Both the position numbers and the translations under genes were made by a program. Positions 2,079 through 57,649 of a stretch of DNA of 64,000 nt are shown piece by piece. Within the stretch, counting starts at the first letter, position 1; every line of letters starts with the position of its first letter. Below the pieces are notes generated by a model. That model searched no databases. It saw only the letters and a list, made by a program, of their open reading frames with translations, and had not been told where the DNA came from. The stretch lies in assembly GCA_964016885.1 (NCBI GenBank), contig OZ024740.1, positions 272,366,001 through 272,430,000 on the forward strand, read 5' to 3'. The DNA comes from Eledone cirrhosa (Eukaryota).

Positions 2079-2335
2079 TACATATATATATATGCACAAG
2101 TTCTATTTAAATTGTTGGGATACAACAAGTAAATATTTTTATAACTGATATAAAGCACTCGACAAGTATTTGGAGTAGATATACGATATTAACAAATGGA
2201 AACTATATTTATATATTGTATTTTATATATTGTATTTTGTCTGATGAAGGCATACCATAATTTAACTTGGTATCCTTGAAATATGTATAATGAAATAAAT
2301 ATTGTTTTATAAATATAGTTTCCATTTGTTAATAT

Positions 2336-2383
<48 letters not shown>

Positions 2384-2462
2384 CACATACATACACATAC
2401 ATACTACTAACATACACATATATACCTACACACACATACATACATACACATACGGTATATAC

Positions 2463-2506
<44 letters not shown>

Positions 2507-2739
2507 TGTATATATCTATATCCATTTATCTATCTATAGATACTATCTATCTATCTTTATGCCAATTTATATAACTATATGATGAATTCTTAATTGTAGG
2601 AAAGAGAAGCAGCCATAGATGAGACACTTGTAGCAAATTATACATATGCAAATATGTTTATAGTATATACTTAAATTAATTATCTGTAAAGGTATGTGTG
2701 GAAGATTACTCACAAACACACACACTCTCCCTCTCTGCC

Positions 2740-2939
2740 CACTCCGTCTCTCTCTCTATAGAATAATATATGAATAAATAAACAAACATATAAATAAATA
2801 AGTGAGTGAGAGAAAGAGAGATAGATAGATTGAGAGATAGAAAGAGAGAGTGAGGGATAGCGAGAGATAGATATATTGAGAGATAGAGAGAGTGAGGGAC
2901 AGCGAGACATAGAGAGAGAGAGAGGGACAGCAAAAGAGG

Positions 2940-2971
<32 letters not shown>

Positions 2972-2985
2972 GACAGCAAGAGAGG

Positions 2986-3016
<31 letters not shown>

Positions 3017-3260
3017 AGGGACAGCAAGAGAGGGATAGTGAGAGAGAGAGAGAGAGGGACAGCAAGAGAGGGATAGTGAGATAGATAGATTGAGAGATAG
3101 AGAGAGTGAGGGACAGCGAGACATAGAAAGAGAGAGAGAGAGAGTGGGGGACAGCGAGCGAGACAGAGAGAGAGAGAGAATGAGGGTCTGCGAGAGAGAG
3201 AAAGAGAGAGAGAAGACGAGGGAGAGAGAGAGAGAGCGAGAGAGAGACAGTGAGAGAGAG
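2740..3260. repeat. (GA)n-rich array with recurring gagggacagc(a/g)agag / gggatagt units
   Basis: Direct reading. Confidence 0.85.
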
Positions 3261-3580
3261 ATGCATAACCTTGGCTATGATAGCTAAGATGTACGAAAGA
3301 ACAAACATGGTCACACGAACTTACATACGTTTCTCTATCGCGCGCATAAACATAAAGCATTTAAACACATATAAAATGAATTATGAAATAGATATAAACA
3401 TTATAACTCATTTAGAAATAAAATATGTAACCACTATATGTAACATATACATAACATGTTGATATCTAACATAACTATATCTCGTACTTGTTTCTTTTAT
3501 AGCTGTTCATCTACTCTCAACATACACCCATTCATCTACCCACTCATTGATTCATTCATGTAACTCTCCCTTTCTTTTTT

Positions 3581-3632
<52 letters not shown>

Positions 3633-3787
3633 TCCTTCTTCCTTTCTTTTTCTTCTAACACTCTTCCATATCTTTAACTCTGCTGTTCATTTTTCTCTTT
3701 ATTACACAACCATCTCTCTGCACACACACACACACACTCACACACACACACACACACACACTCTCACACACACACACACACACCCAC

Positions 3788-3875
<88 letters not shown>

Positions 3876-4200
3876 ATGTGTATGTGTGTGTATGTGTATG
3901 TGTGTGTATATGTATGTGTGTGTGTGTGTATGTGTGTGTATGTGTATGTGTGTGTGTGCGTATGTGTATGTATGTGTATGTGTGTGTGTGTGTGTGCGCA
4001 TATATATATATATATGTATATGCACCCCCCCCCCCCCCCACACATACACACAGATGTATATATTTATGTTTAAAAATGTAGGTTAATTACAAAGCATTAG
4101 AAAATTTGAAATTTGAAATATAGTCATCCCAAATAGAGATAGAGATGTTTGCATTGTATCCCTTACATCATTAGAAATTTACTTTTCGATGTTTCTATAG

Positions 4201-4590
4201 ATTGCTGCAACGGAACAGAAATATTGGATTTCGTTTGGATTATAGATATTTCCTACATCAAGAAACAGAACTATAATCACTAACAGCAGTGGTTTTATGT
4301 AGTCAACAATTCTGTTAAGGCCAGTCACGGCTATACCTAAGGACATAGGGTTATTAATATCCAACTACAACGAAACATTTATAAACACCAGAAAATCTGC
4401 CCAATCCGAACGCGATTGGAGCAACATGACCAGGAATTCTTGGAATGAAAAACGCTTGCCAAAAAAAATAATATTTCGAACGGACGTAAAATCGACAGAT
4501 TATGCAGTATATAGGATTGATCGCGAACACGCTGGCTTTACGAAGCACACCCGTTCACATACGCCCAGAAACAATTGCAAAGTGACATAA
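4201..4590 (+). pseudogene. Possible decayed VWA-domain-like exon
   Basis: Polypyrimidine/AG acceptor ends at 4200; reads CCNGTEILDFVWIIDIS, then after stops and a frame change RLPKKIIFRTDVKSTD, resembling VWA DxVFxxDxS and PKxxxxxTDGxSxD motifs; similarity judged by eye only. Confidence 0.3.
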
Positions 4591-4924
4591 CTTTCGAAAT
4601 ATATTTGCTTTTGAAAGACAGGAGAAAGAAACGTCACTGTAAAATAGAATATTGTTGCAAACACAAAGGAATGTAAAGTACGTAATAGCCGCTGTTAACT
4701 ATGTGTAATGTAAAAACTCAACATCTAAACTTTACTTGACTAATCTCACGAAACAAAAGACATTTTCATCATATTATTATGCTAAGTAATTTAAACCCCA
4801 AACATTTAAGCATATCTCTATATCAACGTAATTCGAACTGAAAACAGGCTGAAGTGACAATTTGATTGAAAGGATGACATAAAATTCGACGCGTAAAATC
4901 AAATAGGATTATTATCTACTAACA

Positions 4925-5310
4925 GGGCGGTGAATTGGCAGTATCGGTAGAGGGTTGGACATGCTTTCCAGCATAGTTACGTCCCTTTACGATCTGAGTT
5001 CAAATCACGCCGAGGTTAACTTTGCCTTTCATTCTTACGGGGTCGATAAAATAAAGTACTAGTAATGTACTGGGTAATTGCTGGCCTTGTGCCAAAAGTA
5101 GAAACAATTATTATCTACTAACAGGGCGGTGAATTGGCAGTATCGGTAGAGGGTCGGACATGCTTTCCAGCATAGTTACGTCCCTTTACGATCTGAGTTC
5201 AAATCGCGCCGAGGTTAACTTTGCGTTTCATCCTTACGGGGTCGATAAAATAAAGTACTAGTAATGTACTGGGGTAATTGCTGGCCTTGTGCCTAAAGTA
5301 GAAACAATTA
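4925..5310 (+). mobile_element. Two tandem copies of tRNA-derived SINE (family S1)
   Basis: A-box-like tggcagtatcgg, B-box-like gagttcaaatc, body gcctttcatccttacggggtcgataaaataaagtac, end gtagaaacaatta; copies 4925-5110 and 5124-5310. Confidence 0.9.
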
Positions 5311-5666
5311 TTATCTACTAATATAATCACTTTCCGAAAAAAAAGAGGAAAAGAAGCCATGTTCATACATGCACAATTTAAGATAAGCGGTATCTAGGTA
5401 CTTTATTGTGAAGTCATGCAAAGGTTGAATTCCGTTATGAAGTGTAACAAAATGACCCCATCTCAAAGGAAATATTTTTCTCGGTTGAAAACTACAATCC
5501 TTTTGATTAATTCGCGTGATCTGAGGCAAAGAAATAGTGAGTTTTGGACGCCATCTTCGATAAAGGAAAGCTTCTCATTACATTACATCACGGCGTCTGA
5601 TTTATCGTGTCAACATGAAACTGAAAGTAACGGCATACGGTGGCATCCAAATAAATAAATGACTAA

Positions 5667-5753
<87 letters not shown>

Positions 5754-5792
5754 TAAATAAATATATATCTATATAAATATATATATATATAT

Positions 5793-5921
<129 letters not shown>

Positions 5922-5964
5922 AATATATATCTATATAAATATATATATATATTTATATATAAAT

Positions 5965-6141
<177 letters not shown>

Positions 6142-6234
6142 GAGAGAGAGAGAGAAATAAATAAATATATATCTATATAAATATATATATATAAATATAT
6201 ATATATAAATATATATATAAATATTTATATATAA

Positions 6235-6298
<64 letters not shown>

Positions 6299-6299
6299 T

Positions 6300-6339
<40 letters not shown>

Positions 6340-6740
6340 TACATACACATATATATATAAGACTATAATAAAACATTGCAAACATTATCAAACTTCACTA
6401 GAATAACCACCACCACCACCAGCACCACCAGCACCACCACCAGCACCACCAGTACCAACAACACCAGCAAAACCAACACCAGTAACATTATTACAATTAC
6501 AACTACCTTTACCATCAACAACTTCAACATCAACTAGAACGACAACTATAACAAACAGAAACGACAGCGCTAACAAAAACTACAACAGTAAAAACAATGT
6601 AAAATAGAACAATAAAATAAAGTAATCAGAAACAAATACATTTTAACATGTAAGTAGATATCTGATTTCCTGTTCCTTCTGTAAAGATAATAATGTAGTA
6701 CAATGGGTAAATGTACTAATAGTAAACACACACAGACACA

Positions 6741-6788
<48 letters not shown>

Positions 6789-6790
6789 CA

Positions 6791-6898
<108 letters not shown>

Positions 6899-6975
6899 CA
6901 CTTGCATACATTCATGCACACACACTGTATATATATATATAAATACATATATATATACATATATATATATGTATT

Positions 6976-7078
<103 letters not shown>

Positions 7079-7248
7079 TTACATATATTTACATATATTT
7101 ACATATAAATATATATGTATACATATAGATATATGTGTATATGTATATATGTATATATGTATATATATATATATATATATTTACATATAAATATATATGT
7201 ATATATATATACACACACAGACACTAACACACACACACACACACACAC

Positions 7249-7283
<35 letters not shown>

Positions 7284-7679
7284 TGCCTCTCTCACCCTTC
7301 CTTTCTCTTGCACAGACTCATACGCTATGCTTCTTTCTTTCATACCTACATACGCACACCGTCTCTTTCCAATTCTGTCTGCTTGCTTGTCTGTCTGCCT
7401 CTCCTCCCCTCTTTCACACACATAGATGCTATTTTACTTACATATACACCCCTTCTCACATTTTTGAGTTCTCTGCTTCTGTGTCTCTCACATATATATA
7501 TACATTCTCACCCTCTCCTAAACATTCTCTGTCCTGTCACTCTGCCTCTCACATACGACATATTCGCTACATCACTTTCGTTTTCACATTATCTGTTTGG
7601 GAGTTTAGCAGCTTTTCGTTTACGTGTTTTTTGCAGTGTAAATTGACCTATAATATTGGTTGCCAGAATAACAGAAAAA

Positions 7680-7861
7680 TAATTGTTTCTACTTTAGGCA
7701 CAAGGCCAGCAATTACTCAGTGCATTACTGGTACTTTATTTTATCGACCCCGTAAGGATGAAAGGCAAAGTCAACCTCGGCGGGATTTGAACTCAGATCG
7801 TAAAGGGACGTAACTATGCTGGAAAGCATGGTGTCTGACCCTCTACCGATACTGCCAATCC
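7680..7861 (-). mobile_element. SINE S1
   Basis: Reverse complement of S1; flanking direct repeat cagaaaaataat (TSD-like). Confidence 0.9.
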
Positions 7862-7989
7862 AGAAAAATAATGATCGATCCCCTGTCGCTACACGACGAT
7901 GAACATTCTGTTATTCGGTCAAATTGTTAAACCATTGCATGCGTAGCTGAGCACATTTGTAATCGTAAGTTAACTCTTGGACCGACTCA

Positions 7990-8142
7990 CGAGAGTCGGT
8001 TGAAAAATTCATGGGCTGGCCAAGATACCTTCATGGACTGTCTAATCCCTGGGAAGAAACGATGCCGTTATTAATAAGATATCACAACAGCATTTGTATC
8101 ACTTCTTCATAGTCAGCGTATGAACGTTTCAGCCTTCCCTCG
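7990..8142. mobile_element. Degraded Tc1/mariner-type MITE
   Basis: Imperfect TIRs cgagagtcggttgaaaaattcat / atgaacgtttcagccttccctcg followed by TA; related to 40624-40818. Confidence 0.55.
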
Positions 8143-8420
8143 TACAATGACACAATATATGAGAAGTTTGGATCTTTGAATTACAGATACACGTCTTCTA
8201 GCGAGGTTCCATACAGTTTCCAGCTATCCAATTATACTCTTAAGACTTAAGTAAATAGGATATTAAGACAAAAGATGCTTCATGAATCTATGATTTCGTG
8301 TTTGTAAAAATATTTCTGTAGTAGGAGGTCCTTTGGTGAAGATTTGGGGCACTTAACTGAATTATCATTTGATATGATACTAAACTGAATTGAAATGATA
8401 TTAAGTTGTGTTGATATAAA

Positions 8421-9277
8421 ATATTATAATTGAATATAAAAGAAAAACGAACACAGATATATACATATATGTGTTCAAATCGCAAGGGACCAGATTCGCT
8501 AAGGTGAAAAGAATACTAACTATAGACAATAGGGTTTGCCTGTCTCAATTTAAGAAAACATCAAGAAAATAAATACAAACCGGAATTGTGGTAACTACCA
8601 ATCACCCAGACAGCTCTTGGTGCTGTTTCGAAATATTAATTGTGAATAGATTGTGAATAGAAATACCAATTCTTGCTCATCAGTGGATGATGAATTAGTA
8701 TCCTAGACACTTCTAAGTATATTAAGACACTGAATAGTGTGCTATATATAATAACGCACATGGTATCTTAGCGTGTCTCACAAACTTACACCACTAAAAA
8801 TAGTAGCCAGGTTTATTCGACATTTGAAATAGCTCAACAAATTAACGGAGCCGAATATATCAAAGGTATATATTGAGTTAGGAACTCAAAATAGTCTCTT
8901 ACAACAAAATAGCTCTAGGAAAGAGATATTTCTGAGCCGTATATTATAATAGAATATAAAAGAAAAAAGAACACAGATATATAGATATATGTGTTCAAAT
9001 CGTAAGGGACCAGATTCGCTAAGGTGAAAAGAATACTAACTATAGACAATAGGGTTTGCCTGTCTCAATTTAAGAAAACAACAAGAAAATAAATACAAAC
9101 CGGAATTGTGGTAACTACCAATCACCCAGACAGCTCTTGGTGCTGTTTCGGAATATTAATTGTGAATAGAAATACCAATGCGATTTGAACACATATATGT
9201 ATATATCTGTGTTCGTTTTTCTTTTATATTCAATTATAATATACGGCTCGGAAATATCTCTTTCTTAGAGCTATTTT
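8421..9277 (-). mobile_element. Non-coding HHR unit, family C: about 520-bp monomer, partial second monomer and inverted end
   Basis: Sequence at 8421 recurs at 8941; about 9180-9277 is an inverted copy of the monomer junction; homolog at 60633-61405. Confidence 0.8.
8601..8691 (-). ncRNA. Type I hammerhead ribozyme (family C) with long stem II region
   Basis: Minus strand: atcatcca CTGATGA g...c GAAA cagc-accaaga-gctg TC tgggtgat; GUC triplet. Confidence 0.8.
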
Positions 9278-9317
9278 ATTGTTGATATGAAGTAGTAATT
9301 CTTGTTTTGTAAACTGA

Positions 9318-9470
9318 TAATTGTTTCTACTTTAGGCACAAGGCCAGCAATTACCCAGTGCATTACTGGTACTTTATTTTATCGACCCCGTAAGGATGAA
9401 AGGCAAAGTCAACCTCTGATAATGATGGCCAACGTTTTTAGACACTTGGCTGTGATTTCAGAGAGATTTG
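9318..9470 (-). mobile_element. SINE S1 3' half joined to a non-SINE head of about 55 bp
   Basis: The same chimera occurs on + at about 20150-20300. Confidence 0.75.
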
Positions 9471-9574
9471 GTTTCTATTTCTAGAAGTCCAAACGGCTGC
9501 ATAAATTGCCCCCCCCCCCCCCCCCCCACGCAAACACACATACACACACACGCACACACACACGCGCACACACA

Positions 9575-9718
<144 letters not shown>

Positions 9719-9844
9719 ACGCACTCACACATATACTCACAGCAGGATCGCCCGATGAACGTCAATCGGTTTCAACGATCAGTGTGCCAGTTGTTCGATG
9801 TAGATGAAATTAACCGGTAAGTGGCTAAGAATTCCACAGACAGG

Positions 9845-9975
9845 TGTGGTGTGGATGGATGGATAGATGGATGATCCCATAACACCCGAGGGAGTAGCAG
9901 GGGCACCGTATTGACATACGGCGTTTTTAGGGCATTTTATAACCTGTCGGTGCCTATCCTTATCCAGGTACAGAC
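9845..9975 (-). mobile_element. Short structured repeat with (CCAT)n-type tail, probable RTE-type 3' end
   Basis: Homologous to 42793-42930 and 43270-43412. Confidence 0.45.
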
Positions 9976-10435
9976 AGGTGTACCCTTAACATAATCTTCA
10001 GGGAGATTCAGGGCGACCCAGTATCTGACAGAGCTGGCCTTTTGAATTATAGGTACAGTCTATCCGACGGGTTTTCGGCGACTCAATTTCACTCTTGAGA
10101 CATGGGTCAACTCGAAGCCATAGTAACTGACACAAGCACAAGGTGCTATGCAGTCGGATCAAGCCTGGAACCTAATGAGTGCGAAACTAAATTCCTAACC
10201 ATCAATCCATCCATGGTACAATATCGCCAGAAACATCAAGATAGGCTTATCGGTATTTTCTGCCGACATTGGCTGCTTTCCAACTGCCTTTGTAAAATAT
10301 TGGACATACTCTCATGCAAATTTGCATTTAATTTCATATTAATCTCATTTAAAACATTTCATGTACATGTGCATGTATGTATGTATGTATGTATGTATGT
10401 ATGTATGTATGTATGTATGTATGTATGTATGTATG

Positions 10436-10466
<31 letters not shown>

Positions 10467-10620
10467 GTATGTATGTATGTATCTATGTATATATGTATGT
10501 ATGTACGTATGTATGAATATATGTAGGTATGTATATATGTATTTATATTTAACTGTATTTTTTATTCTTGTGTTTGTTTTGTTTCATGTATTAACTATAT
10601 ATATATATATATATATATAG

Positions 10621-10945
10621 ACCTGTGCGAAATTCCTTCCTTGCTCACATTTCAACCAGGTTTGATGGTCTTTATTCTCTCGTTCACGATTTCACCGAAT
10701 TTACATTCATAGAAATCTGGGACTTGTCTCTTTCTTCATTACTTTCTGTTGCTTAAACCATTTTGTTTGTTTACCCTCGCGTCCCCTTTATTTACGTGTC
10801 CCAACGACTTTTTTTTAGCCGTTGCTCGCACCAACCGGAGGTATATGGTCTTTAAAGCGATGAAATGCCTATGATGGTTGGAAGATCACTGATGAAGGAC
10901 AAACTTTTTCATATGTAACCCATTTGCAACGCCGCAGCTCCATTA
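10621..10945 (+). mobile_element. Diverged copy of family D pLTR-like unit
   Basis: Aligns by eye with 22320-22612; (TA)n on both sides; contains ctgatgaagg. Confidence 0.7.
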
Positions 10946-10947
10946 TT

Positions 10948-10978
<31 letters not shown>

Positions 10979-10979
<1 letters not shown>

Positions 10980-11171
10980 CGTTATTCCGGGTTGAATCGG
11001 ACGTAACCACAGTAAGTAAGGTACTCAATACATTGCAGAGTATACAAGTTTTAATATAGATGAGATTCTACAGGACTAGAACTGTTTCATTCTTTAGAAA
11101 TCATCAGGAATCTCTGAGGGATTCCTGATGATTTCTAAAGAATGAAACAGTTCTAGTCCTGTAGAATCTCA

Positions 11172-11178
<7 letters not shown>
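10979..11178. mobile_element. Family E fold-back unit in (TA)n carrying an HHR on each arm
   Basis: About 11055-11112 and 11120-11177 are inverted repeats; homolog at 58236-58564. Confidence 0.8.
11120..11168 (+). ncRNA. Type I hammerhead ribozyme (family E); mirror copy on - at 11064-11112
   Basis: gattc CTGATGA t-ttct-aa-agaa-t GAAA cag-ttctagtc-ctg TA gaatc. Confidence 0.75.
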
Positions 11179-11217
<39 letters not shown>

Positions 11218-11386
11218 TATACGTATATGTATATATATATATATGTATATACATATACATATATGTATATACGTATATGTATAAAAACGATGACGATCAG
11301 AAAACTTTTGTAACCAACTAATGTTATGATACTTTTCATTTATTTTTATTCATTTATTTTCCCAGCAACAGAGAAAGAATGAAGAA

Positions 11387-11578
11387 TATCATCATCATCA
11401 TCATCATCATTATCATCATCATCACCATCACCATCGTCATCGTCATCATCATCATGATCATCATCATCACCATCATCGATATCATCATCGTCATCGTCAT
11501 CATCGTCATCATCGTCATCATCATCATCATCACCATCATCATCATCATGATCACCATCATCACCATCATCATCATCGT

Positions 11579-11624
<46 letters not shown>

Positions 11625-11652
11625 GATATCACCATCACCATCATCATCATCA
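11387..11652. repeat. (CAT)n trinucleotide array
   Basis: Direct reading. Confidence 0.95.
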
Positions 11653-11782
11653 ACAATAACACAACAATAACATCAGCCACAATGGATGTTATGGTAATGA
11701 GAGGTAGAGGAGATTAATAGGAATAGAGCATTCGAAGTATTGATAGGTAGATAGTTAAATAGTTAAATATATATATGTATGT

Positions 11783-11883
<101 letters not shown>

Positions 11884-11944
11884 CATATGTATATATATAT
11901 ATATATACATATGTCATGTATATATATATATATATACTATGTCA

Positions 11945-13379
<1,435 letters not shown>

Positions 13380-13754
13380 GGGGTAACAAATAATAGTTAA
13401 ATGCAGTCCACTTAGGTAAAGTCCAGTTATGGTATTCCAGGTAGTGGATGATATTAACGCTTGGCTTGGTTTGACTCAACAAGGCGTTTTCATAGTGATG
13501 CTGCCGGTATGCCCTAATTCCTATGTTGTAAACACTTGGAGTAATAATAAATCAGGAAAGAAGGTTGACATGGTTTTCTATACAAAAAAGGTTTTTAATC
13601 TCATAGCTGACAATTGTTTCTCTGAACTGGTAGGTCTAGAGATCGCTATTCGCTTATTTTCGCGTTACTCGATCGCTGCATTTAACTGTTATTTGTTACC
13701 CCGTATATTTAGCTCCCACCTGGTCGAGCAACACCATTAACGCACGGCAACAAC

Positions 13755-16122
13755 ATGGAGAAGCACCGTATAGGTATGTCACTGAAAAACATACCTATAC
13801 CTACAAAAAAGGACTATACACTGGGCATGATACGACGGACTAATGATTTCATCCGCAGGGTCCGATGGAAAGCTTACCATTTCGATAAGGGACCAAATAC
13901 CAACGGAAAGGAATTTTCTAAGGAGAATTACGGGTTTAAATCCTGCAAAAACCCGCTAAACAACCCCTCACTCGATGCCTTCGAGCTGGACCTTATGAAC
14001 ATGATAAGTGAAACTAAATTTAAAAAAGGAACAAATCACAACAAATTGCAAAATGACTTAAATACACTACTAAAAAAACTAAAAGACACTAACGGTATCA
14101 TAGTAAAAGCAGACAAAACATCAAACGTCTACTCTATGGACATTAACACACACAATAACTTTATCCAGCGTGAACTACATAAAAAATATAAAAAAACAAA
14201 TGAATCTACACTCACCAACATTAACGTGGAGGGCCTCAGATAGGACCGAACCGCTAACCCTGTGCAACCCAACATTTAACCTGAAGGATCACAAAAATAA
14301 CTTTGAAACTAATCCCACCATTAGATTAATATGCCCATCCAAGTCAGACATAGGTAAAATTAGCAAGAACATTCGAGATAGGGTAATCGCACAAATAAAG
14401 GGTAAACTAAAAATCAATTTATGGGGCAACACTAACGAGGCAATTAAATGGTTCAATAAAATACAAAATAGGGAGACGTGTAACTTCATACAATTTGATA
14501 TAGACGACTATTATGCATCCATATCCCCAGCTACCCTAGATAAGGCGCTTATATTTGCCCAAAATAACTCTGATCTTACCCATGATGAAATTGAAATAAT
14601 AATAGCGGCTAGGAGGACTATCATAAAATTTGAAAATAGCTACTGGGTAAGAAAGGATAGAATAAATAGCTTCGATATAACAATGGGATCAAATGATTCT
14701 GCGCAAATCACAGATATCGTGGGGCTATTCATAGCACACAACCTACATAAGGAATTCAGTAACCTCCAAGGAGGAATTTATAGGGACGACACGTTACTTA
14801 TAGCTAGGAACCTAAACAACCAGAGCATGGAAAGACTAAGAAAAAATATTAGAATATTCTTCAAAAAACTAGGCCTAAGTATTACCTACGAACTAAACCA
14901 TAAGAAGGTAAATTTTCTAGATGTGACTCTAAATCTAAATACTGGATTAATAGAACCTTTCCACAAAAATAATGAAAATCTTGCCTACATTAGTTACAAC
15001 TCAAATCACCCAAATCCATAATTAGATCCATAGCACGTAGTATATCCTTCCGAATATCCCGCTTATCCTCAAACCTAGAAATCTTTAACGAGCATGCTGA
15101 CTATTTTAATGCAGCATTACGTAGGGCCGGTCATAAAGATAAACTGCAGTATATAGTGAATAAGGACAACGTAAACAATCCTAGTAATTACTACTCCAAC
15201 CGCTCACATAATAATAGAAATAACTTGACTAGACATAGGGTTAGACACGTAACACCTGGAGTAAACGGCCAAAACACTAATAACGTAAACCCAAGAAACA
15301 ATAGAAGAAACAGACAAAGAAAATACCTATGGTTCAACCCAATATTCAACTCCTCTATAAAAACTAGACTGCCCTCTACATTCTTTAAACTAATAGATAA
15401 ACACTTCCCTATCTCACATAGATATCACAAAATACTCAATAGATCTACTATAAAACTCTCATTCTCAACAGCAGCTAACATAGAATCACACATACGCAAG
15501 ATCAACCACAGAAATATCTCTAGTAAATCAACTGCACCTATACATAACGTAGCACCGAATTATAAGCACAAACACATCACAACATCACAACCACAAAACC
15601 ATACAAACGCACAGCAGCAAAACCCCATTGGGCATATATCACAACCCACTTATAACAGAGTACTAAACAGGAATGTAAAAGCTGCACAAAATAGCGCCTA
15701 AAACTGTAACTGTCACCTACCAGATAGGTGCCCATTGGCGAACAGATGTCTCGATTCGAGCCTAGTGTACATGTGCACTGTCATCTCGGGTAACTCCACC
15801 TGGAATTACATAGGATCCACCGCGGGTTCTTTTAAAAAAAGATGGTATGTGCACAGACACTCAATGAAAAACCGTGCACTTATGGGTTCCACAACCCTCG
15901 CCAAAAAAATATGGGAACTGAAGGACAGCAACACTAACTACAGTATCAACTGGTCGAAGTTGTCGGCTGCTAAAACCTATAGTACAGGGATTTCCCACTG
16001 CGGGCTATGTGATCTTGTGCTATTGTATATCCTCAAAAATGTAAAAAGACTACTTGTTAGAAAGATCTATCTTCTGCAGACATAGAATTGCCACTAAATT
16101 CATAAGATTCAAACCTCCGTGA
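13755..16122 (+). pseudogene. PLE reverse transcriptase / GIY-YIG endonuclease ORF (disrupted)
   Basis: SLKNIPIP, FIRRVRWKA, IIVKADK, RT motifs FDIDDYYASI, MGSNDS, IYRDD, VNFLDVTLNL, SNHP, WFNP..LIDKHFP, CNC-x5-CP, VY-x11-YIGST, CGLC; frameshifts near 14235, 15013 and 16055; in-frame TAA at 15699. Confidence 0.92.
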
Positions 16123-16435
16123 ATCGAACCAACACAACATAGCTTTAAATTAGGATACCTACTACCCACAGAAATATATTCATTAAGTATACTATATCCT
16201 TCACAAGTCTATACCACACAATTGTCTGTAAGTACCTCATCTACCCACAAACTTATTCCTTCTCAGCTGCTGCCATCATTTGATCCTAAATCCTATTTTT
16301 TCTCAAATCACTACTACAATGTAATTTTACCTTCCTTTTGCCATAATTACAATTAGCACGCTTATCTCTTTGCATGTATGTATATTTTTGTACGAGTGTA
16401 TATTGATGTGTATGTATGTGTCTATGTACACATGC

Positions 16436-16532
<97 letters not shown>

Positions 16533-16932
16533 TGTGTGTGTATGTGTGTGTGTTAATATATGTGTATATTACTTCGTTAACCTCTGTATTAACTCAACAA
16601 CTATTTAGCTTTGACAGTGTTGTCCCACTCATGTATACTATTGAAGATGAAGAGAAAGACTGTAAACATTAGCTTATCTTTATAATTTAAAATTGATATA
16701 CACTTCGATACTCTGTACATGCCAAACGCTTTCTTTTGCCTCATGACAGTTAGTTTTACACGCCGTAACGTTAGATACATTATACCCCCCACCTAAGTAA
16801 TGTCAGGGTCTCCTTAAATAATTTATTAATAGCATTGTTGTAATTGTTGTTATTGTTCTAATTGAATGCCATTACTACTTCATATAGTAGCCTGTATATT
16901 CTTTTCTTGCCTGTGTATTTTCTTCATTCTCG

Positions 16933-17045
16933 CATGCTCCGAAGATCTGACTGGTTATAATTTTGTATTGGCGATCGAGTAACGCGAAAATAAGCGAATA
17001 GCGATCTCTAGACCTACCAGTTCAGAGAAACAATTGTCAGCTATG
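16933..17045 (+). ncRNA. Variant type I hammerhead in PLE pLTR (CCGAAGA core, about 60-nt stem II insert)
   Basis: catgct CCGAAGA tctgactgg...ccagttcaga GAAA caattg TC agctatg; palindromic stem III; same core in the second copy at 33942-34054. Confidence 0.7.
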
Positions 17046-17115
17046 AGATTAAAAACCTTTTTTGTATAGCAAACCATGTCAACCTTCTTTCCTGATTTAT
17101 ATATATATATATATA

Positions 17116-17218
17116 ACGAAGGAGTTGTGGTAAGGAACCAGATGGACCATAACGCACCAGAGTACTCAATACGTAGTAGTAGGTTTGTGCTCTGCCGTCG
17201 GGGTCATACATTTTCCTA
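17116..17218. mobile_element. Family F fragment (inverted tail plus short sense end) in (TA)n
   Basis: Matches 23079-23241, 32095-32238 and 33407-33535. Confidence 0.7.
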
Positions 17219-17267
17219 TATATATATATATATATATATATACAGACACACACACACACACACACTC

Positions 17268-17318
<51 letters not shown>

Positions 17319-17519
17319 TAGATAGAGAGAGAGAGAGAGAGAGATAGAGAGAGAGATAGAGAGAGGGAGGCAGAAAGAGAAAGAAATGTGCCATTATCGT
17401 CTCCAGTCTTTTCATTACAAATATTATTTCCAATATTATTTTATTATTATCACCAGTACAAATAACCTTCATCATGATCAATATCGTAATCATCATCACC
17501 TCTCAACCACAACGATGAC

Positions 17520-18032
17520 ACAACTACAACTACCACCACCACCACCACCACAGCTACCACTACCACCACCACCACCACCACCACCACCACAGCTACCACC
17601 ACCACCACCACCACCACAACCATTAAAACAACCTCCACCACCACCACCACAACTAGCATCACCACTAGATTCGCCACCACCACCACCACCACCACCACCA
17701 CTACCACCATCACTAGCACAACTACCACCACCACCACCACCACCACCACCACCACTAGCACCACCACAACTAGCATCGCCAACACCACCACCACCACCAC
17801 CACTACCACCACCACTAGCACCGCTACCACCACCACCACCGACACAATCATCATCATTGTCCCCCTCCTGCTACTGCTCCTCCTCCTCATTCTCTTCTTC
17901 TTCTTCTTCTTCTTCTTCTTCTTCTTCTTCTTCTTCTTCTTCTTCTTCTTCTCCTTCTTCTTCCCTCCTCCTCCTCCTTCTTCCTCTTCCCTCTCCTTCA
18001 CCCTCGTCTTCTTTCTCTTCCTACTCGTCATC

Positions 18033-18070
<38 letters not shown>

Positions 18071-18500
18071 AACAATTATCATCCTCGCCTTCCTGACCAT
18101 CATCATCATCATTATCATCAGAGCCATCAATACAGTCTACATTCCTCAACGTCCCCCAACCACCCTCAACCTCAACCTCATCATCTTCATCATCATCATC
18201 ATCATCATCATTATTATTATCATTGTTATTATTGTTGTTGTTGTTGTTGTTGTTATTATTATTATTAATATTATTATTATTATTATCATCATTATTACTG
18301 TTGTTGTTGTTGTGGTTGTTGTTGTTATTGTTGTGGTTATTGTTGTTGTTATTATCATTATTACTGTTGTTGTTGTTGTTGTGGTTGTTGTTATTGTTGT
18401 GGTTATTGTTGTTGTTATTATTATCATTATTACTGTTGTTGTTGTTGTGGTTGTTGTTGTTATTGTTGTGGTTATTGCTGTTGTTATTGTGGTGGTTATA
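17520..18500. repeat. Compound trinucleotide arrays (CCA)n, (TCT)n, (CAT)n, (TTG/TTA)n
   Basis: Direct reading; source of the poly-P/S/N ORFs. Confidence 0.9.
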
Positions 18501-19478
18501 TTTTTGTGGAGATCTTTCTATCAACTACGAATGATTTGTGGTATGTCATGAAACATTAATAACTGATACCAGCTTCCACTTCCGCTTTTTTTAAAACCCA
18601 GCCCCAGCCCACACCACCCCGTCCCTGTCCCTCCCCACTTATACACACCGCCATTACATTACCAATTGCGCATCACAATAATATCAGCATAGAGTTTCGC
18701 ATTAATTCATGCAACTAAAATGGTGGTAGGTCTGTCTGCTCACCTCTTCGTTGAGGTAATGGTGAATGAGTGAGAGTGAGAGAGAGTGAGATATATAGGT
18801 AGAGTGAGAGAGAGGGAGAAAGAAAGAGAGAGAGAGAGAGAGAGAGTGAGAGAGAGAGAGAAAGAAAGAGAGAGAGAGTGAGATATATAGGTAGAGTGAG
18901 TGTGTGTGAGATATATATATATATATAGGTAGAGAGAGAGAGAGAGAGAAAGAAAGAGAGAGAGAGAGTGAGAGAGAGAGAAAGAAAGAGAGAGAGAGTG
19001 AGATATATAGGTAGAGAGAGTGTGTGTGAGATATATATATATATATAGGTAGAGAGAGAGAGAGAGAGGGAGAGGGAAAGGGAGAGAAGGCGAAAGAAGC
19101 AGAGAGACAAAGAAACAGAGAGAGAAGGAGAGAGAGAGAGAGAAGGAGAGAGAGAGAGAGAGAAGGAGGAAGAGATTTATATACACAGATGTAGAAAGAG
19201 AGAGGGAGAAAGAAGGAGAAAGAGGCAGAGAGGGAGAGAGAGAGAGGGGAGAAAGAGAGACAAAGAAACATATATATATATATATAAAGAGAGAGAGAGC
19301 AGGAGGGAGAGAGATACACAGATGTAGAAAGAGAGAGTGAGAGAGAGGGAAAGAAGGAGAGAGAGAGAGAGAGAGAAGGAGAGAGAGTCAGTCAGACAGA
19401 CATAAAGATTGACATGACTGTGTGTGTGTGTGAGTGAGTGTGTGTGTGTGTGCGGAATATGTTAAAAATAAAAAGTAA

Positions 19479-19852
19479 TAATTGTTTCTACTTTTGGCAC
19501 AAAGCCAGTAATTATCTCAGTACATTACTGGTACTTTATTTTATCGATCCCGTAAGGATGAAAGGCAAAGTTAACTTCGGCGGGATTTGAACTCAGACCG
19601 TAAAGAGACGTAACTATGCTAGAAAGCATGGCGTCCGACCTTCTACCGATACTGCCAATTCGCCGCCCTAAAATAATTGTTTCTACTTTTGGCACAAGGC
19701 CAGCAATTACCTAGTGCATTACTGGTACTTTATTTTATCGACCCCGTAAGGATGTAAGGCAAAGTTAACCTTGGCAGAATTTGAACTCAAATCGTAAAGG
19801 GACGTAACTATGCTGCAAAGCATGGCGTCCGACCCTCTACCGATACTGCCAA
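19479..19852 (-). mobile_element. Two tandem SINE S1 copies
   Basis: Reverse complements of S1 at about 19479-19668 and 19674-19852. Confidence 0.9.
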
Positions 19853-20028
19853 AAGTAATAATATTACATCAACAACAATAAAAACAACGCAAAAAACATC
19901 AACAATATTCACCAGTCTGAGTCTACATTGCTTTACTTTGGTATTAGAGCATTGCTGAGTGGTTAAGTAACTTGGTAATCATTAGGTGTTGGGTTCGATA
20001 CCATCGTGTTTCATCCTGGGTAAATGTC

Positions 20029-20300
20029 AGGTGGATTGGCAGTATCGGTAGAGGGTCGGACGCCATGCTTTGACGCATAGAGTTACGGCCTTTGCCATTC
20101 TGAGTTCAAATACCACCGAGGTTAACTTTGCCTTTCAAAATCTCTCTGAAATCTCTCTGAAATCACAGCCAAGTGTCTAAAAACGTTGGCCATCATTATC
20201 AGAGGTTGACTTTGCCTTTCATCCTTACGGGGTCGATAAAATAAAGTACCAGTAATGTATTGGGTAATTGCTGGCCTTGTACCAAAAGTAGAAACAATTA
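20029..20300 (+). mobile_element. SINE S1 5' part followed by a chimeric S1 3' part
   Basis: S1 head 20029-20137, non-SINE insert, S1 body and tail 20202-20300. Confidence 0.8.
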
Positions 20301-20700
20301 ACTATAGTTGCAGTTAAACTCATGCAATGTGAGTGAAATTGGGTAGATGGAACCTGTTTGGAAGGATCGTCGGATGGACTATTTAAAGGACGAAGGAATG
20401 TGGCGAGAGGAGAGGTGTTGCGTTGAAAAGAACCCGTTCAACCTATGCAAGCGTGGAAAAACACACGTAAAATAGATGATGATGATGATGATGATGAAGA
20501 TTATCGTCATCATCGTTTTCATCATTATCAACTCCACCAATAACATAGTTATCCTCCTCCTCCTCCTCCTCCTCCTCCTCCTCCTCATCATCATCATCAT
20601 CATCGTTCTCTTCATCGTCGTTGTTGTTATCATCTTCAACATCATCCTCCGCATCATCATCATCGTTCTCTTGATTGTCTTTGCTGTTATCATTTTCAGC

Positions 20701-20738
<38 letters not shown>

Positions 20739-21228
20739 TCTCCTCATCACCAATGTCAATATATTTGACAACATCATCTACAACAATGATAAAACGATAG
20801 TAAGGAGAAGAAAATGAGGAAGATGGTGAAAAAGGATGGAAATATAAGCACAGCCATTACAACAACAAAAACAAGAGGTACCAGAAAGATTTTAAAAAAA
20901 AAAAAAGCCAAAGGTAAAAAAAGAGTAAGATGAATGAACATTAATAATAATAACTACAACAATAGCAAAAGAAGAAAAATACAAAATGGCGGTTATAATT
21001 GTGTTTCTTTTCTGTTTGGCATTGATTCAATACAATTGGAACCTGTATATTTTGTAATTTTTAGGTAGTTTTTCCCCACCTAAATTATAGCGGTGTGTGA
21101 ATGATGCTGGAGGTATAGGTTATTTGTTTGAATGTATATATGTTTGTGTTTGTTTCAGTGTGTGTATATATGTGTGTGTGTATGTGTGTGTGTGTGAGAG
21201 AGAGAGAGAGGGGGAGAGAGAGAAAGAG

Positions 21229-21268
<40 letters not shown>

Positions 21269-21401
21269 TGTATGTGTGTGTCTGTGACTGTGTTTGTTTG
21301 TTTGCTTGTTCGTTTGTGTGTGTGTGTGTCTGTATGTGTGTGTGTAATTGCATACCAAACCGTAAAGATTTGATTTTACGCTAAACAATGTTTGCTTCAT
21401 G

Positions 21402-21457
<56 letters not shown>

Positions 21458-21460
<3 letters not shown>

Positions 21461-22613
21461 AAAAATGGAGTGCTGCGTGGTTGCACATGGGTTACATATG
21501 AATAAAATTAGTCCTTCATCAGTGATCTTCCAACCTTCATGGTATTTCATCGCTTTAAAAATCATATACCTCTGGTTGGTGCGAGCAATAACTAAATAAA
21601 GTTATTGGGACAAGTAAAATAGGGAGAAACGAGCGAGACATGTAAACAAACAAAGATGGTATTGCAACGGAACGATAGGAAGAGACAAGAACATGATATC
21701 TGTAAGCTTAAGCTTGGTGAAATCATGGACGAGAGATACAGACCATCCGACCTGGGTGAGATGTGAGCGAGAAAAGGATTTCACACAGGTCAAACGGGAG
21801 GAAGTGAGAGAGGGGGAGAAGAAGAGAGTGAGTGAGTGGAAGTGTGAGGAAGAGGCCAGCTGAGAGAGAGTGTGACTGGCAGAGGGGGTAAAAAGAAGGT
21901 GAGAGATACAGAGAGAGGGGAAGCAGTAAGAAAGAAACAGACAATCGCAGCTGAGGAAAAAATATAAATATAAGAAAAATGGAGTGCTGCGTAGTTGCAC
22001 ATGGGTTACATATGAATAAAATGAGTCCTTCATCAGTGATCTTCCAACCTTCATTGGTATTTCTGATGAAGAGGCCAGCCGAGAGAGAGCGACCGGCAGA
22101 GGGGGTAAAAATAAAGTGAGAGATACAGTGAAAGGGGAAGCAGTAAGAAAGAAACAGACAGGTCGCAGCGGAGGAAAAAATATAAATATATGAAAAATGG
22201 CGTGCTGCGTGGTTGCACATGGGTTACATATGAATAAAATTAGTCCTTCATCACTGAAGGTTGGACGATCACTGACTCACTCACTCTCCGCTTCTCCCCT
22301 CTCTCACTTCCTCCCGTTTCACCTGTGTGAAATCCTTTTCTCGCTCACATCTCACCCAAGTCGGATGATCTGTATCTCTCGTCCATGATTTCACCAAGCT
22401 TAAGCTTACAGATATCATGTACTTGTCTCTTCCTATCTTTCCGTTGCAATACCATCTTTGTTTGTTTACATGTCTCGCTCGTTTCACCCTATTTTACTTG
22501 TGCCAATAACTTTATTTAGTTATTGCTAGTACCAACCAGATGTATATGATTTTTAAAGCGATGGAATACCAATGAAGGTTGGAAGATCCCTGATGAAGGA
22601 CTAATTTTATTCA
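21458..22613 (-). mobile_element. Family D pLTR-like unit: about 514-bp monomer, partial repeats and a long inverted segment
   Basis: aaaaatgg(a/c)gtgctgcgt recurs at about 21460, 21975 and 22193; about 22275-22613 inverts about 21497-21835; (TA)n on both sides; CTGATGA present but no complete HHR fold found. Confidence 0.75.
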
Positions 22614-22824: not shown

Positions 22825-22893
22825 CTGAGGTTTTAGCCGAAATCGTCTGAAACCTTTGGTAAATGGAATAATTGCCTTATGCTGTTTATTACA

Positions 22894-22898
<5 letters not shown>
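22825..22898 (+). mobile_element. Family A 3' end with the 3' half of an HHR
   Basis: GAAA cc-ttt-gg TA aatggaataattgccttatg...acataact(ata)n, the same tail as 1611-1660 (-). Confidence 0.65.
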
Positions 22899-28140: not shown

Positions 28141-28378
28141 ATTTTATAGCACTAGCATCAATCCTTCATAATCAGCCTATAGATTTTTCTGCCAATTCTC
28201 GTAACTTCGACCAAAGTCAAAATTGCGTAACAAACGCGACTCTACTTTATTAATTGTTAAATTTTATTAATGTTCAATAAGCGTGACATACATAATTCCT
28301 GTCTTAAGTTAATAGTGGTAAACTTCCTATAAAATTTGTATTAATCTTTGTCCAAAGATATGGATAATATTGCAAAAT

Positions 28379-29266
28379 AATGGTTTCCTATTTAGGCACA
28401 AGACTAACAATTTTTGCGGATGAGAAAATCGATAAAATCGACCCTAGTGCGTTACTGGCACTTTATTTTATTAAATCAATAGGGATGAAAGACAAAGCTA
28501 ACCTCGGTGGGATTTGAACTTAGAAAGTAAAAGGACATAACTACATGCTGCAAAGTATTATGTCCGACGCTCTACCGACACTGCCAGTCAACTGCCCTAT
28601 TACAAAATAATAATGGTTTCTACTATAGGCACAAGGCCAGCAATGTTGGGGGAAAGGAAAGTCGATCAAATCGACACCAGTACGTTACTGGTGCTTTATT
28701 TTATCGAACCCCGTACGGATGAAAGGCAAAGTTAACCTCGGTGGGATTTGAACTCAGATCATAAAGGGCCGTAACTCTTTGCTGCAAAGCATGGCGTCCG
28801 ACCCTCTACCGAGACTGCCAATCCACCGCCCTTCTCTTAATGGTTTCTTATATAGGCCCAAGGCCAACAATTTTTGGGGAGAGGAAAATCGATTAAATTC
28901 CCCCAGTGCATGACTGGTACTTTATTTTATCGACCCCGTAAGGATGAAAATCAAAGTTAACCTCGGTGCGATTTGAACTCAGATCATAAAGGGCCGTAAC
29001 TCTATGCTGAAAAGCATGGTGTCCGACACCCTACCGATACTACCAATCCACCGCTCTATTACAAAATAGTAATAAAAAATAATTATTTCTACTTTTGACA
29101 CAAGGCCAGCGATTATTCAGTGTATTACTGGTACTTTATTTTATCGACCCCGTAAGGATGAAAGGCAAAGTTAACCTCGGCGGGATTTGAACTTAGACTG
29201 TAAAGGGACGTAACTCTATGCTGCAAAGCATGGTGTCCAACTCTCTACCGATACTGCCAATCTACC
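28379..29266 (-). mobile_element. Cluster of four head-to-tail SINE S1 copies
   Basis: About 28379-28598, 28612-28831 and 28839-29056 (long-tail subtype), 29081-29266 (short-tail subtype). Confidence 0.88.
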
Positions 29267-29554
29267 AAAAATAATAAAGTTAAGATAAATTCATAATGAC
29301 CAATTCTATATCTCAACAGTAGATAAGAACAGGCGCTCTGGAAAATACATACACACGAATTTGATGGTAATCTTTCTAGGTTGTCTCCGTTGATAAGAGC
29401 GGGGGAGGAGGCTGAACAATTAATAAGCCGGTGGTGGTAGTGGTGGGATTATTCGAGACCCCATAGTACGTTGTGTTGGTTGACTTGTTCTCGGTAAATT
29501 GTGCGAAAATAAAGTTTGTCACAACAACACAATATATTATAGGAAACACCGAGG

Positions 29555-32094: not shown

Positions 32095-32803
<709 letters not shown>

Positions 32804-33687: not shown

Positions 33688-33887
33688 TATATATATATTT
33701 ATATATAAATATAAATTCAGCGAGAATCGTATTTCGGCTGGTAGAAAAAGCGAAACGAAACACAAAATCGTATAAATATTGGCAAGCGCTCCAATAGTTA
33801 AGAAAACTAGAGCTAAACAATGTTAAAACGCCATACAAACTCAAAAAGTGGTCAAAAAACAAATGAAGCTAAACAGGTCAATATATA

Positions 33888-35215
33888 TAAATCAGGAAAG
33901 AAGGTTGACATGGTTTGCTATACAAAAAAGGTTTTTAATCTCATAGCTGACAATTGTTTCTCTGAACTGGTAGGTCTAGAGATCGCTATTCGCTTATTTT
34001 CACGTTACTCGATCGCCAATACAAAATTATAACCAGTCAGATCTTCGGAGCATGCGAGAATGAAGAAAATACACAAGCAAGAAAAGAATATACAGGCTAC
34101 TATATGAAGTAGTAATGGCATTCAATTAGAACAATAACAACAATTACAACAATGCTATTAATAAATTATTTGAGGAGACCCTGACATTACTTAGGTGGGG
34201 GGTATAATGTATCTAACGTTACGGCGTGTAAAACTAGCTGTCATGAGGCAAAAGTAAGAGTTTGGCATGTACAGAGTATCGAAGGGTGTATCAATTTTAA
34301 ATTATGAAGATAAGCTAATGTTTACAGTCTTTCTCTTCATCTTCAATAGTATACATGAGTGGGACAACACTGTCAAAGCTAAATAGTTGTTGAGTTAATA
34401 CAGAGGTTAACGAAGTAATATACGCATATATTTATACACACACACATACACACACACACATACACACACACACACATATATATATACACATGCATGTGTA
34501 CATAGACACATTCATACACATCAATATACACTCGTACAAAAATATACATACATGCAAAGAGATAAGCGTGCTAATTGTAATTATGGCAAAAGGAAGGTAA
34601 AGTTACATTGTAGTAGTGATTTGAGAAAAACAAGGATTTAGGATCAAATGATGGCAGCAGCTGAGAAGGAATAAGTTTGTGGGTAGATGAGGTACTTACA
34701 GACATTTGTGTGGTATAGACTTGTGAAGGATATAGTATACTTAATGAATATATTTCTGTGGGTAGTAGGTATCCTAATTTAAAGCTATGTTGTGTTGGTT
34801 CGATTCACGGAGGTTTGAATCTTATGAATTTAGTGGCAATTCTATGTCTGCAGAAGATAGATCTTTCTAACTTATTGTTAAGTAGCCTTTTTACATTTTT
34901 GAGGATATACATTAGCTCAAGATCACATAGCCCGCAGTGGGACATCCCACGATCTCTAGACCTACCAGTTCGGAGAAACAATTGTCAGCTATGAGATTAA
35001 AAACCTTTTTTGTATAGCAAACCATGTCAACCTTCTTTCCTGATTTATTATTACTCCAAGTGTTTACAACATAGGAATTACGGCATACCGGCAGCATCAC
35101 TATGAAAACGCCTTGTTGAGTCAAACCAAGCCAAGCGTTAATATCATCCACTACCTGGAATACCATAACTGGACTTTACCTAAGTGGACTGCATTTAACT
35201 ATTATTTGTTACCCC

Positions 35216-35217
<2 letters not shown>
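33888..35217 (-). mobile_element. 5'-truncated second copy of the PLE with inverted pLTR segment
   Basis: 33888-34941 is the reverse complement of about 15994-17098; 34950-35217 is the reverse complement of about 13378-13644; (TA)n on the right flank and a short TA run on the left. Confidence 0.92.
33942..34054 (-). ncRNA. Variant hammerhead (CCGAAGA core) in the second PLE copy
   Basis: Same fold as 16933-17045. Confidence 0.7.
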
Positions 35218-39196: not shown

Positions 39197-39614
39197 ATTA
39201 ATGATGTGTTCTTAATATCTAAAAACAACAAAACTATACCGAAGAATGAACTAAACATGATACGGTGCCAAATATTTTTGTTTTTAATTTAAGATAAGAT
39301 TTGACTGTATCTAGGAAACTTCGCTAGAGAAGATGGAATAGAGTTTTGTTTCATAAAACGCCTTGACGAAGTTTCGAAATAAAGGCCAACGCCTCTTTCG
39401 TAAATATTCTCAAGGAATATCATAGTTCACCTAAATGAAGTGCTTTTGCCTCAGTGTTCTATCTATAGCCCCGACAAACTTTTATGTGAAGCAAATAAGG
39501 GCGAATTATGAATATATCGATAAAGAGAATTTTATCTTGTTAGGACTTTGCAATATTTCTTCACCTAGTTTGTGACACGTCAGCCAGAATAATGAATATT
39601 ATACAATGAATGTG

Positions 39615-39940
39615 ATATGCAAATTGGGCTACTCAGCCGTTAATATGCATAAGGTAAGTATATACGTTCAACAATCTGGCAGGAAGGTATACGTTGCTGA
39701 CGATAGCTAATAAGCTTGAAACTAGTACAGCGTTCCTTTGTCAGTGTTGAACAAACGAGCAACGATGGTTGCTGGACACTACGGCTTAATACGGGATGGT
39801 TGTTTACAAACACACCGAGCATTATAATAAATGTTCGGTGAATCCATACGTACATATATATATGTGTGCATGTATGTATATATATATACATACTACTGTA
39901 CGTCTGTATACATATATGTATGTACGTGTACATACTTATA
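39615..39940 (+). mobile_element. Family B unit, second copy
   Basis: Reverse complement of about 850-1192. Confidence 0.8.
39691..39733 (+). ncRNA. Type I hammerhead ribozyme (family B)
   Basis: acgttg CTGACGA t-agc-taataa-gct-t GAAA ctag TA cagcgt; stem I fully paired including one G-U. Confidence 0.75.
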
Positions 39941-51220: not shown

Positions 51221-51221
51221 A

Positions 51222-57604: not shown

Positions 57605-57649
57605 TACAAGGAATCTTTATATATATATATATATATATCAAAAGTATAT

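Follow-up and report, generated by a model that had tools for sequence, protein, structure and literature searches.

A Family of Protein-Free Hammerhead-Bearing Repeats in Eledone cirrhosa, Likely Mobilized as Non-Autonomous Penelope-Like Elements

Introduction

Penelope-like elements (PLEs) typically form partial tandems with an adjacent inverted 5'-truncated copy and a tail of 30–40 bp, and target (TA)n (PMC8557442). In vitro, both strands of AT-rich DNA are nicked by a PLE protein, for which hammerhead cleavage is dispensable; two internal start sites on the RNA bound the tail, and uncleaved RNA is preferred (PMC11167929).

The non-LTR retrozymes were defined in PMC7229834, where circles were described for three animals (coral, mussel, and axolotl) and proposed to serve as templates; the circular-template life cycle of animal retrozymes has the status of a proposal in that paper. 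A 2026 preprint makes the case for animal retrozymes being non-autonomous derivatives of PLEs, gives units of 51–972 bp, takes two complete hammerheads as the criterion of an active retrozyme, reports cleavage in one out of nine predicted Xenopus retrozymes tested, and leaves the retrozyme mechanism open (bioRxiv 10.64898/2026.07.22.740005). The hammerhead core is defined in PMC3088659, where pseudoknots of the stem I–stem II region are predicted for ~40% of hammerheads. The comparisons made here refer to parts of the cited publications.

Here, we describe a repeat, denoted family C, found at two loci of the window, that is, the whole analyzed stretch of 64,000 nucleotides of Eledone cirrhosa DNA. 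Family C is a new family within a known class, the non-autonomous PLEs (animal retrozyme type). With a probability of about 75%, in our estimate, it is a protein-free unit of ~500 nt that contains one hammerhead motif of type I, forms insertions of a partial tandem with an inverted arm and a tail, and is likely mobilized in trans by a PLE reverse transcriptase/GIY-YIG protein, probably from a multi-unit transcript.

Results

Organization of the Two Loci

The sense part spans 759 nt at locus 1, that is, 1.46 units of 520 nt, and 639 nt, or 1.29 units of 496 nt, at locus 2 (Table 1). According to BLAST and pairwise alignment, segment 8941–9170 is 97.4% identical to 8421–8650 (period 520), and segment 61124–61272 is 95.3% identical to 60628–60776 (period ~496), while pairwise alignment of the locus 1 and locus 2 units shows them to be colinear and 85% identical. 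The unit has a GC content of 33% and no ORF, the longest stop-free stretch being 60 codons when both strands and the junction are included; an ORF combining RT and GIY-YIG was sought inside the unit and is absent. A preliminary description of this DNA had claimed a head-to-tail ORF-less monomer of about 500 bp at two loci, and this is confirmed. Its size is not at the large end for such elements, as had been supposed, the published ranges being 150 to >1000 nt (PMC7229834) and 51–972 bp (bioRxiv 10.64898/2026.07.22.740005).

Table 1. Features of family C in the window.
Feature	Position	Strand	Details
Locus 1, left flanking duplication, 9 bp	8409..8417	.	TGTTGATAT; repeated at 9280–9288; likely target-site duplication
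Locus 1, complete unit, 520 nt	8421..8940	-	Insert 3' end at 8421, on an AT-rich palindrome
Locus 1, type I hammerhead	8601..8691	-	Predicted cut after GUC, between 8609 and 8608
Locus 1, complementary 8-nt arms	8663..8701	-	8694–8701 upstream of stem I, 8663–8670 in loop II; may form a pseudoknot or an inhibitory hairpin
Locus 1, tail segment, 86 nt	8855..8940	-	Represents the beginning of the following unit; also found in inverted arms, with a fixed end at 8855
Locus 1, upstream partial unit, 5'-truncated	8941..9179	-	Carries only the 3' half of the hammerhead (9121–9179)
Locus 1, inverted arm	9179..9279	+	9179–9242 mirrors 8421–8484; 9243–9279 is a short tail
Locus 1, right flanking duplication, 9 bp	9280..9288	.	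TGTTGATAT; second copy of 8409–8417
Diverged (75%) tail-plus-3'-end piece	57633..57790	+	Next to (TA)n; same tail start position
Locus 2, complete unit, ~496 nt	60634..61124	-	3' end abuts a (TA)n run of ~65 nt
Locus 2, type I hammerhead	60809..60886	-	Cut predicted between positions 60817 and 60816
Locus 2, upstream partial unit	61125..61272	-	Stops 40 nt before the cleavage site
Locus 2, inverted arm with full 86-nt tail	61272..61407	+	Short TA run at the end

Both loci have a fixed 3' end and a 5'-truncated upstream copy, and at both an inverted 5'-truncated copy is adjacent. The tandem had been described as extending to 9277 at locus 1, which includes too much: 9179–9279 is an inverted copy of the 3' end with a tail, and the same applies to 61272–61407 at locus 2. 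The upstream partial unit of locus 1 differs from 8421–8669 by six mismatches and one 11-nt indel, and that of locus 2 differs from the 3' copy at seven out of 145 positions. An 11-nt local duplication (8639–8649) is seen in loop II of locus 1; neither the upstream copy nor locus 2 has it.

The tail is one-sided, as in PLEs, though longer than the published 30–40 bp; it measures 37 nt at locus 1 and 86 nt at locus 2, and its full-length end, fixed at the position of 8855/8856 in the locus 1 unit, recurs at 61407 in locus 2 and at 57633 in the diverged piece. The insert at 57633 may be chimeric, or else a member of a family that shares the ends of family C; a different hammerhead-like motif is located at 57803, directly after the diverged piece. 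As for the flanks, the 9-bp duplication around locus 1 is likely a target-site duplication, judging by a background in which at least 9 nt were common to four out of ~20,000 random 15-mer pairs from the nearby flanks; at locus 2, no flanking duplication is readable.

A MITE or another DNA transposon with terminal inverted repeats would also leave a 9-bp duplication, and the inverted repeat of locus 1 is perfect over 64 nt. However, this repeat is not terminal on the right, where it is followed by a tail of 37 or 86 nt, the arm length and the inversion point differ between copies, and an internal partial tandem and a hammerhead motif are present. Contradicted by the variable arms and the one-sided tail, this reading was rejected as scarcely credible.

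A repeat search of the window itself was dominated by (TA)n.

Family C in Public DNA Data

We compared four out of twelve listed public DNA runs (X1, X5, X6, and X10) with one family C unit and its left flank. Aligned to the unit were 3,640 contigs from X1, 3,127 reads from X10, 13 contigs from X5, and none from X6, and family C is a high-copy family. One X1 contig spans the left junction (8230–8448) with no differences; this junction is therefore present in the X1 organism, whose independence from the window is uncertain. The tandem joint from 8940 to 8421 was found in six contigs and in 30 reads from nine starts. Nine out of the 15 joints listed involve a strand change, all at different places. 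Loose ends at 8855/8856 abut (TA)n in 30 contigs of X1 and in 267 + 177 reads of X10. The target features comprise (TA)n at locus 2 and at the tail ends in X1 and X10, and the 9-bp duplication at locus 1. Taken together, the inverted arm, the tail, the flanking duplication, and the (TA)n target give better support to mobilization by a PLE enzyme than the preliminary description, which had already proposed it, could offer, and we regard such mobilization as likely.

The copies also bear on the possibility that the loci are merely what remains of an autonomous PLE, as pLTR stumps or as single internal deletions, rather than members of a propagating non-coding family. The layout and the position of the hammerhead are those of pLTRs, and the summed depth in X1, which is not a copy number, is ~80,000–200,000 over the terminal segments and ~2,100–22,000 over the interior, so that many copies or relatives share only the ends. 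Still, the ORF-less unit is colinear at two loci with 85% identity, and diverged contigs span 8708–8880, the interval where the ORF of an autonomous parent would be expected; X1 contigs 7 and 8, with 11–13 other letters, lead from the tail in the direction of the hammerhead and contain no large insert. Moreover, none of the loose ends listed branches into unrelated sequence inside the unit. We therefore consider this explanation highly unlikely, while an ultimate origin of family C from a deleted PLE is compatible with a non-coding family mobilized in trans.

Two further patterns in these data were set aside. Pile-ups of X10 read ends at 8428, 8550, 8693, 8840, and 8843 were rejected as element ends or cleavage signals, as they coincide with AATT sites in a RAD library, and X10 depth was likewise rejected as a copy profile. 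The listed read end at 8828 is an exception, the reference having no AATT site there. We do not claim that inversion points cluster around the cleavage site: among the joints listed, five out of six usable ones (four from the runs, two from the window) fall within ~60 nt of it, and their unit of origin is uncertain.

Hammerhead Motif

A motif scan of both strands identified a type I hammerhead at each locus; it lies on the minus strand, and its core, CUGAUGA..GAAA..GUC, is complete. The motif comprises C3 U4 G5 A6 N7 G8 A9, G12 A13 A14 A15, and U16 H17 of the type I core, together with three stems, stem I being open, and the predicted cut is ~190 nt upstream of the insert 3' end. At locus 1, stem I has 8 bp, stem II 1 bp, loop II 45 nt, and stem III 4 bp; stem II has 2 bp in most family C copies, and at locus 2 it has 2 bp with a loop II of 32 nt.

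Each of the two loci, both of which were checked, contains a single complete hammerhead. At locus 1, the second copy breaks off within loop II, at 9179, and CUGAUGA is missing from it; at locus 2, the second copy stops before the ribozyme. Hence, the earlier statement of one hammerhead per monomer holds as one complete motif per locus but does not extend to the partial second copies. With one complete hammerhead each, neither locus is able to release a unit circle or unit-length RNA alone, so that the suggestion that these loci are processed to circles is not supported.

The loci differ by one pair in stem III (CAGC/GCUG vs. CAAC/GUUG, a G–C to A–U change) and by one pair in stem I (U.G vs. 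C–G). Both differences are as described previously, including the observation that stem I varies only between G–U and G–C; the double compensatory change in stem III, however, amounts to a single base pair. In a covariation analysis of three rows, this was one compensatory pair among 23, and 159 out of 500 shuffles scored equally, so that the change is not significant by itself. A third variant of stem III with another compensatory pair is seen in the loose-end consensus of seven contigs at 8613. The stem I C–G pair (8687) accounts for 11,768 out of 12,266 of the depth in X1 and for 19 out of 22 X10 reads; for the second pair of stem II (8631), the values are 2,118 out of 2,134 and five out of five, respectively. 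As the majority alleles restore both pairs, locus 1, carrying two minority alleles, represents a weakened copy.

In local Rfam scans, no hammerhead match was obtained for locus 1, and for locus 2 the only one was RAGATH-1-hammerhead (E 8.2, 16.2 bits against a gathering threshold of 56.3), probably because of the loop II length of 32–45 nt; the identification as a ribozyme is based on the core motif together with the stems. An Rfam scan of the whole window was swamped by microsatellite matches to miRNA models. The hammerhead pattern had no matches in the metagenome contigs.

In the unconstrained fold of locus 2, stems I and III are both present. At locus 1, the lowest-energy fold (−29.0 kcal/mol, against −15.3 kcal/mol when the hammerhead is constrained) hides the core by means of the pairing of two complementary 8-nt arms. 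These are paired at eight out of eight positions at both loci, with one U–A to U.G change; the shuffle p-value is 0.003–0.004 per locus, calculated post hoc and for loci that are not independent. As a lead only, the predicted pairing could correspond to a pseudoknot or to an inhibitory hairpin.

Allele Sharing at Locus 1

The inverted arm of locus 1 is identical to the 3' copy at all 64 positions and to the internal copy at 60 out of 64. At three of the four differing sites, the letter shared by the arm and the 3' copy differs from both locus 2 copies, and at 8483 the shared letter is the minority one, T being found in 124,387 out of 133,763 of the depth in X1 and in 843 out of 1,050 reads in X10. 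Since the same derived letters are present in the arm and the 3' copy, post-insertion mutation of identical repeats does not explain the pattern. In its tail part, the arm has three mismatches to the internal copy among 37 positions, and for the tail differences at 8918 and 8933 both letters are common standing alleles in the runs. The same test at locus 2 is uninformative, the arm differing at one out of 43 positions from both copies.

As the arm shares alleles with the 3' copy and not with the internal one, a non-identical multimeric template is favored over one monomer circle, and in the simplest reading of these sequences the locus 1 template likely consisted of non-identical repeats plus the tail. 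Alternatively, the pattern may have arisen by gene conversion between the arms, or by a jump from one RNA template to another. Further, the sense part of locus 1 crosses two cleavage sites and extends 51 nt beyond the second; thus, its template was uncleaved, circular, or jumped, and not a cleaved linear monomer.

The latter observation suits the classical non-LTR retrozyme cycle as well, in which arrays elsewhere, with at least two hammerheads, would release units that form circles, and the PLE enzyme would roll round one circle, producing 1.3–1.5-mers. This cycle agrees with the type I hammerhead, the low GC content, the tandem unit, and the lack of an ORF, and circles have been documented for the coral, mussel, and axolotl retrozymes (PMC7229834). 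The circular fold of the unit is more stable than shuffles (z-scores −3.6 and −3.0, 40 shuffles each), yet such a z-score is not specific to circles. On the other hand, one circle would yield identical repeats, whereas the locus 1 repeats differ at alleles common to the inverted arm; two complete hammerheads are found at neither locus; and partial tandems also occur in PLEs without canonical hammerheads (PMC8557442). We therefore hold the cycle to be rather improbable for family C. Nor is a circular template needed for the 1.3–1.5-mers, as had been proposed, partial tandems being standard in PLEs (PMC8557442) and the locus 1 alleles arguing for non-identical repeats. Of the initial alternative between a circular and a multimeric RNA, the multimeric half is thus better supported, by the allele sharing at locus 1.

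Neighboring Elements

A broken Hydra-type PLE occupies 13379–17097 (+); it encodes an RT together with a GIY-YIG-like region at the C terminus and has the RWK, DKT, and CxCx5C motifs, which PMC8557442 gives for the Hydra clade. Its RT matches Pfam RVT_1 with an E-value of 1.8e-4, below the curated cut-off, in one out of four scanned pieces. An inverted head and a 171-nt tail in (TA)n give it the same layout as family C, but there is no sequence similarity between the two. An internally deleted copy of this PLE, 96–99% identical, is located at 33887–35216 (−). No canonical hammerhead core was found in this PLE.

Two other repeats of the window are arranged in tandem with inverted pieces. The first, a non-coding family (21458–22612; related piece at 10620–10947), has a period of ~514 nt and contains CTGATGA at 21522, 22036, and 22590 with no downstream GAAA. 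The second (54929–55875), bounded by (TA)n runs, consists of 1.3 copies of a 592-nt unit and an inverted piece of 99% identity; a hammerhead core was sought there but not found, and the inverted piece comes from the interior, a geometry unlike that of family C.

Hammerhead motifs are also seen in other repeats. A second hammerhead family with a short stem II is present at 11062–11170 and 58253–58303, its copies 11062–11114 (−) and 11118–11170 (+) forming a head-to-head palindrome. Hammerhead-like motifs of a further family are found at 57791–57900 (+), 1640–1699 (−), 2233–2297 (+), and 22848–22896, and more CTGAAGA or CTGACGA cores, at 32532 (−), 32611 (+), 1101 (−), and 39697 (+), lie in repeated segments (32371–32789 with 54585–54681; 861–1439 with 39614–39938).

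Both family C loci are flanked by a many-copy repeat of ~190 nt (7678–7862, 9317–9416, 59420–59605, 60105–60295, and many more), which is in tandem at 4908–5321, 28376–29277, and 63136–63990 and which may resemble an octopus SINE; together with the microsatellite load, the abundance of short repeats would suit an octopus genome. A fragment of a LINE-type reverse transcriptase frame was recognized by eye from the translation at 51204–52052.

Discussion

Like the animal non-LTR retrozymes, family C has a size within the published ranges, a proposed mobilization by PLEs, and a tandem unit that is non-coding, low in GC, and provided with one type I hammerhead (PMC7229834; bioRxiv 10.64898/2026.07.22.740005). 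In contrast to them, its loci contain fewer than two units and one complete hammerhead each, and so fall outside the active class as the preprint delimits it. The inverted arm and the tail are features of PLEs that do not appear in the parts of the retrozyme descriptions compared here (PMC7229834; bioRxiv 10.64898/2026.07.22.740005). Also, family C has a loop II of 32–45 nt and is known here from DNA alone, whereas the retrozyme circles are known from RNA.

The closest likeness in layout is to published PLE insertions, namely, Pen2a_Av (PMC3846280), those in Fig. 2 of PMC8557442, and Poseidon PAc (PMC11167929), which have in common with family C a fixed 3' end, an upstream 5'-truncated copy, an adjacent inverted copy, a one-sided tail, a 9-bp duplication or (TA)n target, and a hammerhead near the 3' end. 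Family C differs from them in having no RT/GIY-YIG ORF and in its 86-nt tail, two to three times the published 30–40 bp. Chlamys elements such as MRC1 are likewise non-autonomous PLE derivatives with pLTRs and head-to-tail copies; however, they are green-algal, most have no hammerheads, and their similarity to the 3' end of an autonomous element has been shown, while none was found for family C (PMC8557442). With the pseudoknotted hammerheads (PMC3088659), family C shares a short stem II (1–2 bp) and possible pairing between stem I and the stem II region; unlike there, the pairing in family C is a post hoc prediction from two related copies, for which an inhibitory hairpin would serve equally well.

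An autonomous partner sharing the family C ends was sought in several ways. There was no match to the PLE of the window at E<1. In the PMC8557442 supplement, the consensus ends of octopus Naiad and Hydra-1_Obim, compared by eye over short Naiad contexts and the first part of Hydra-1_Obim, bear no likeness to family C. Relatives of the window's RT were found at one locus (L001), which does not resemble family C.

The layout of the copies suggests the following course of events. A source locus with more than two units would be transcribed on the hammerhead strand. By analogy with the in vitro data (PMC11167929), the PLE protein would nick AT-rich or (TA)n DNA, and reverse transcription would start from two internal sites ~86 nt apart, presumably corresponding to the observed end positions, namely, the junction between units (8421/8941) and the end of the tail (8855). 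One cDNA would give rise to the sense part of 1.3–1.5 units, with variable truncation, and the other to the short inverted arm, the two being joined at variable positions, as in the observed layout. At locus 1, where the alleles of the arm are those of the 3' copy and not of the internal copy, the template would likely have comprised non-identical repeats. The hammerhead is predicted to cut the transcript at its site ~190 nt upstream of the 3' end, although at locus 1 two minority alleles weaken it.

A more specific version of this scheme is tentative and, in our view, somewhat doubtful: the PLE enzyme may prime twice, 86 nt apart, on non-identical multi-unit RNA, circles being a by-product or absent, and the long-loop hammerhead may be held on or off by the 8-bp pairing with the upstream flank.

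Among the papers retrieved on octopus Penelope elements, no title or abstract beginning describes such a family, which may already be present in Repbase or Dfam. As a family, family C is ordinary, since hammerhead-bearing non-autonomous PLE derivatives are known across animals, and several of them lie within the same window. Its high copy number, readable partial tandems, inverted arms, and long tail make it useful test material: allele sharing among the 3' copy, the internal copy, and the inverted arm, followed over many copies, would test the circular-template model from genome sequence alone.
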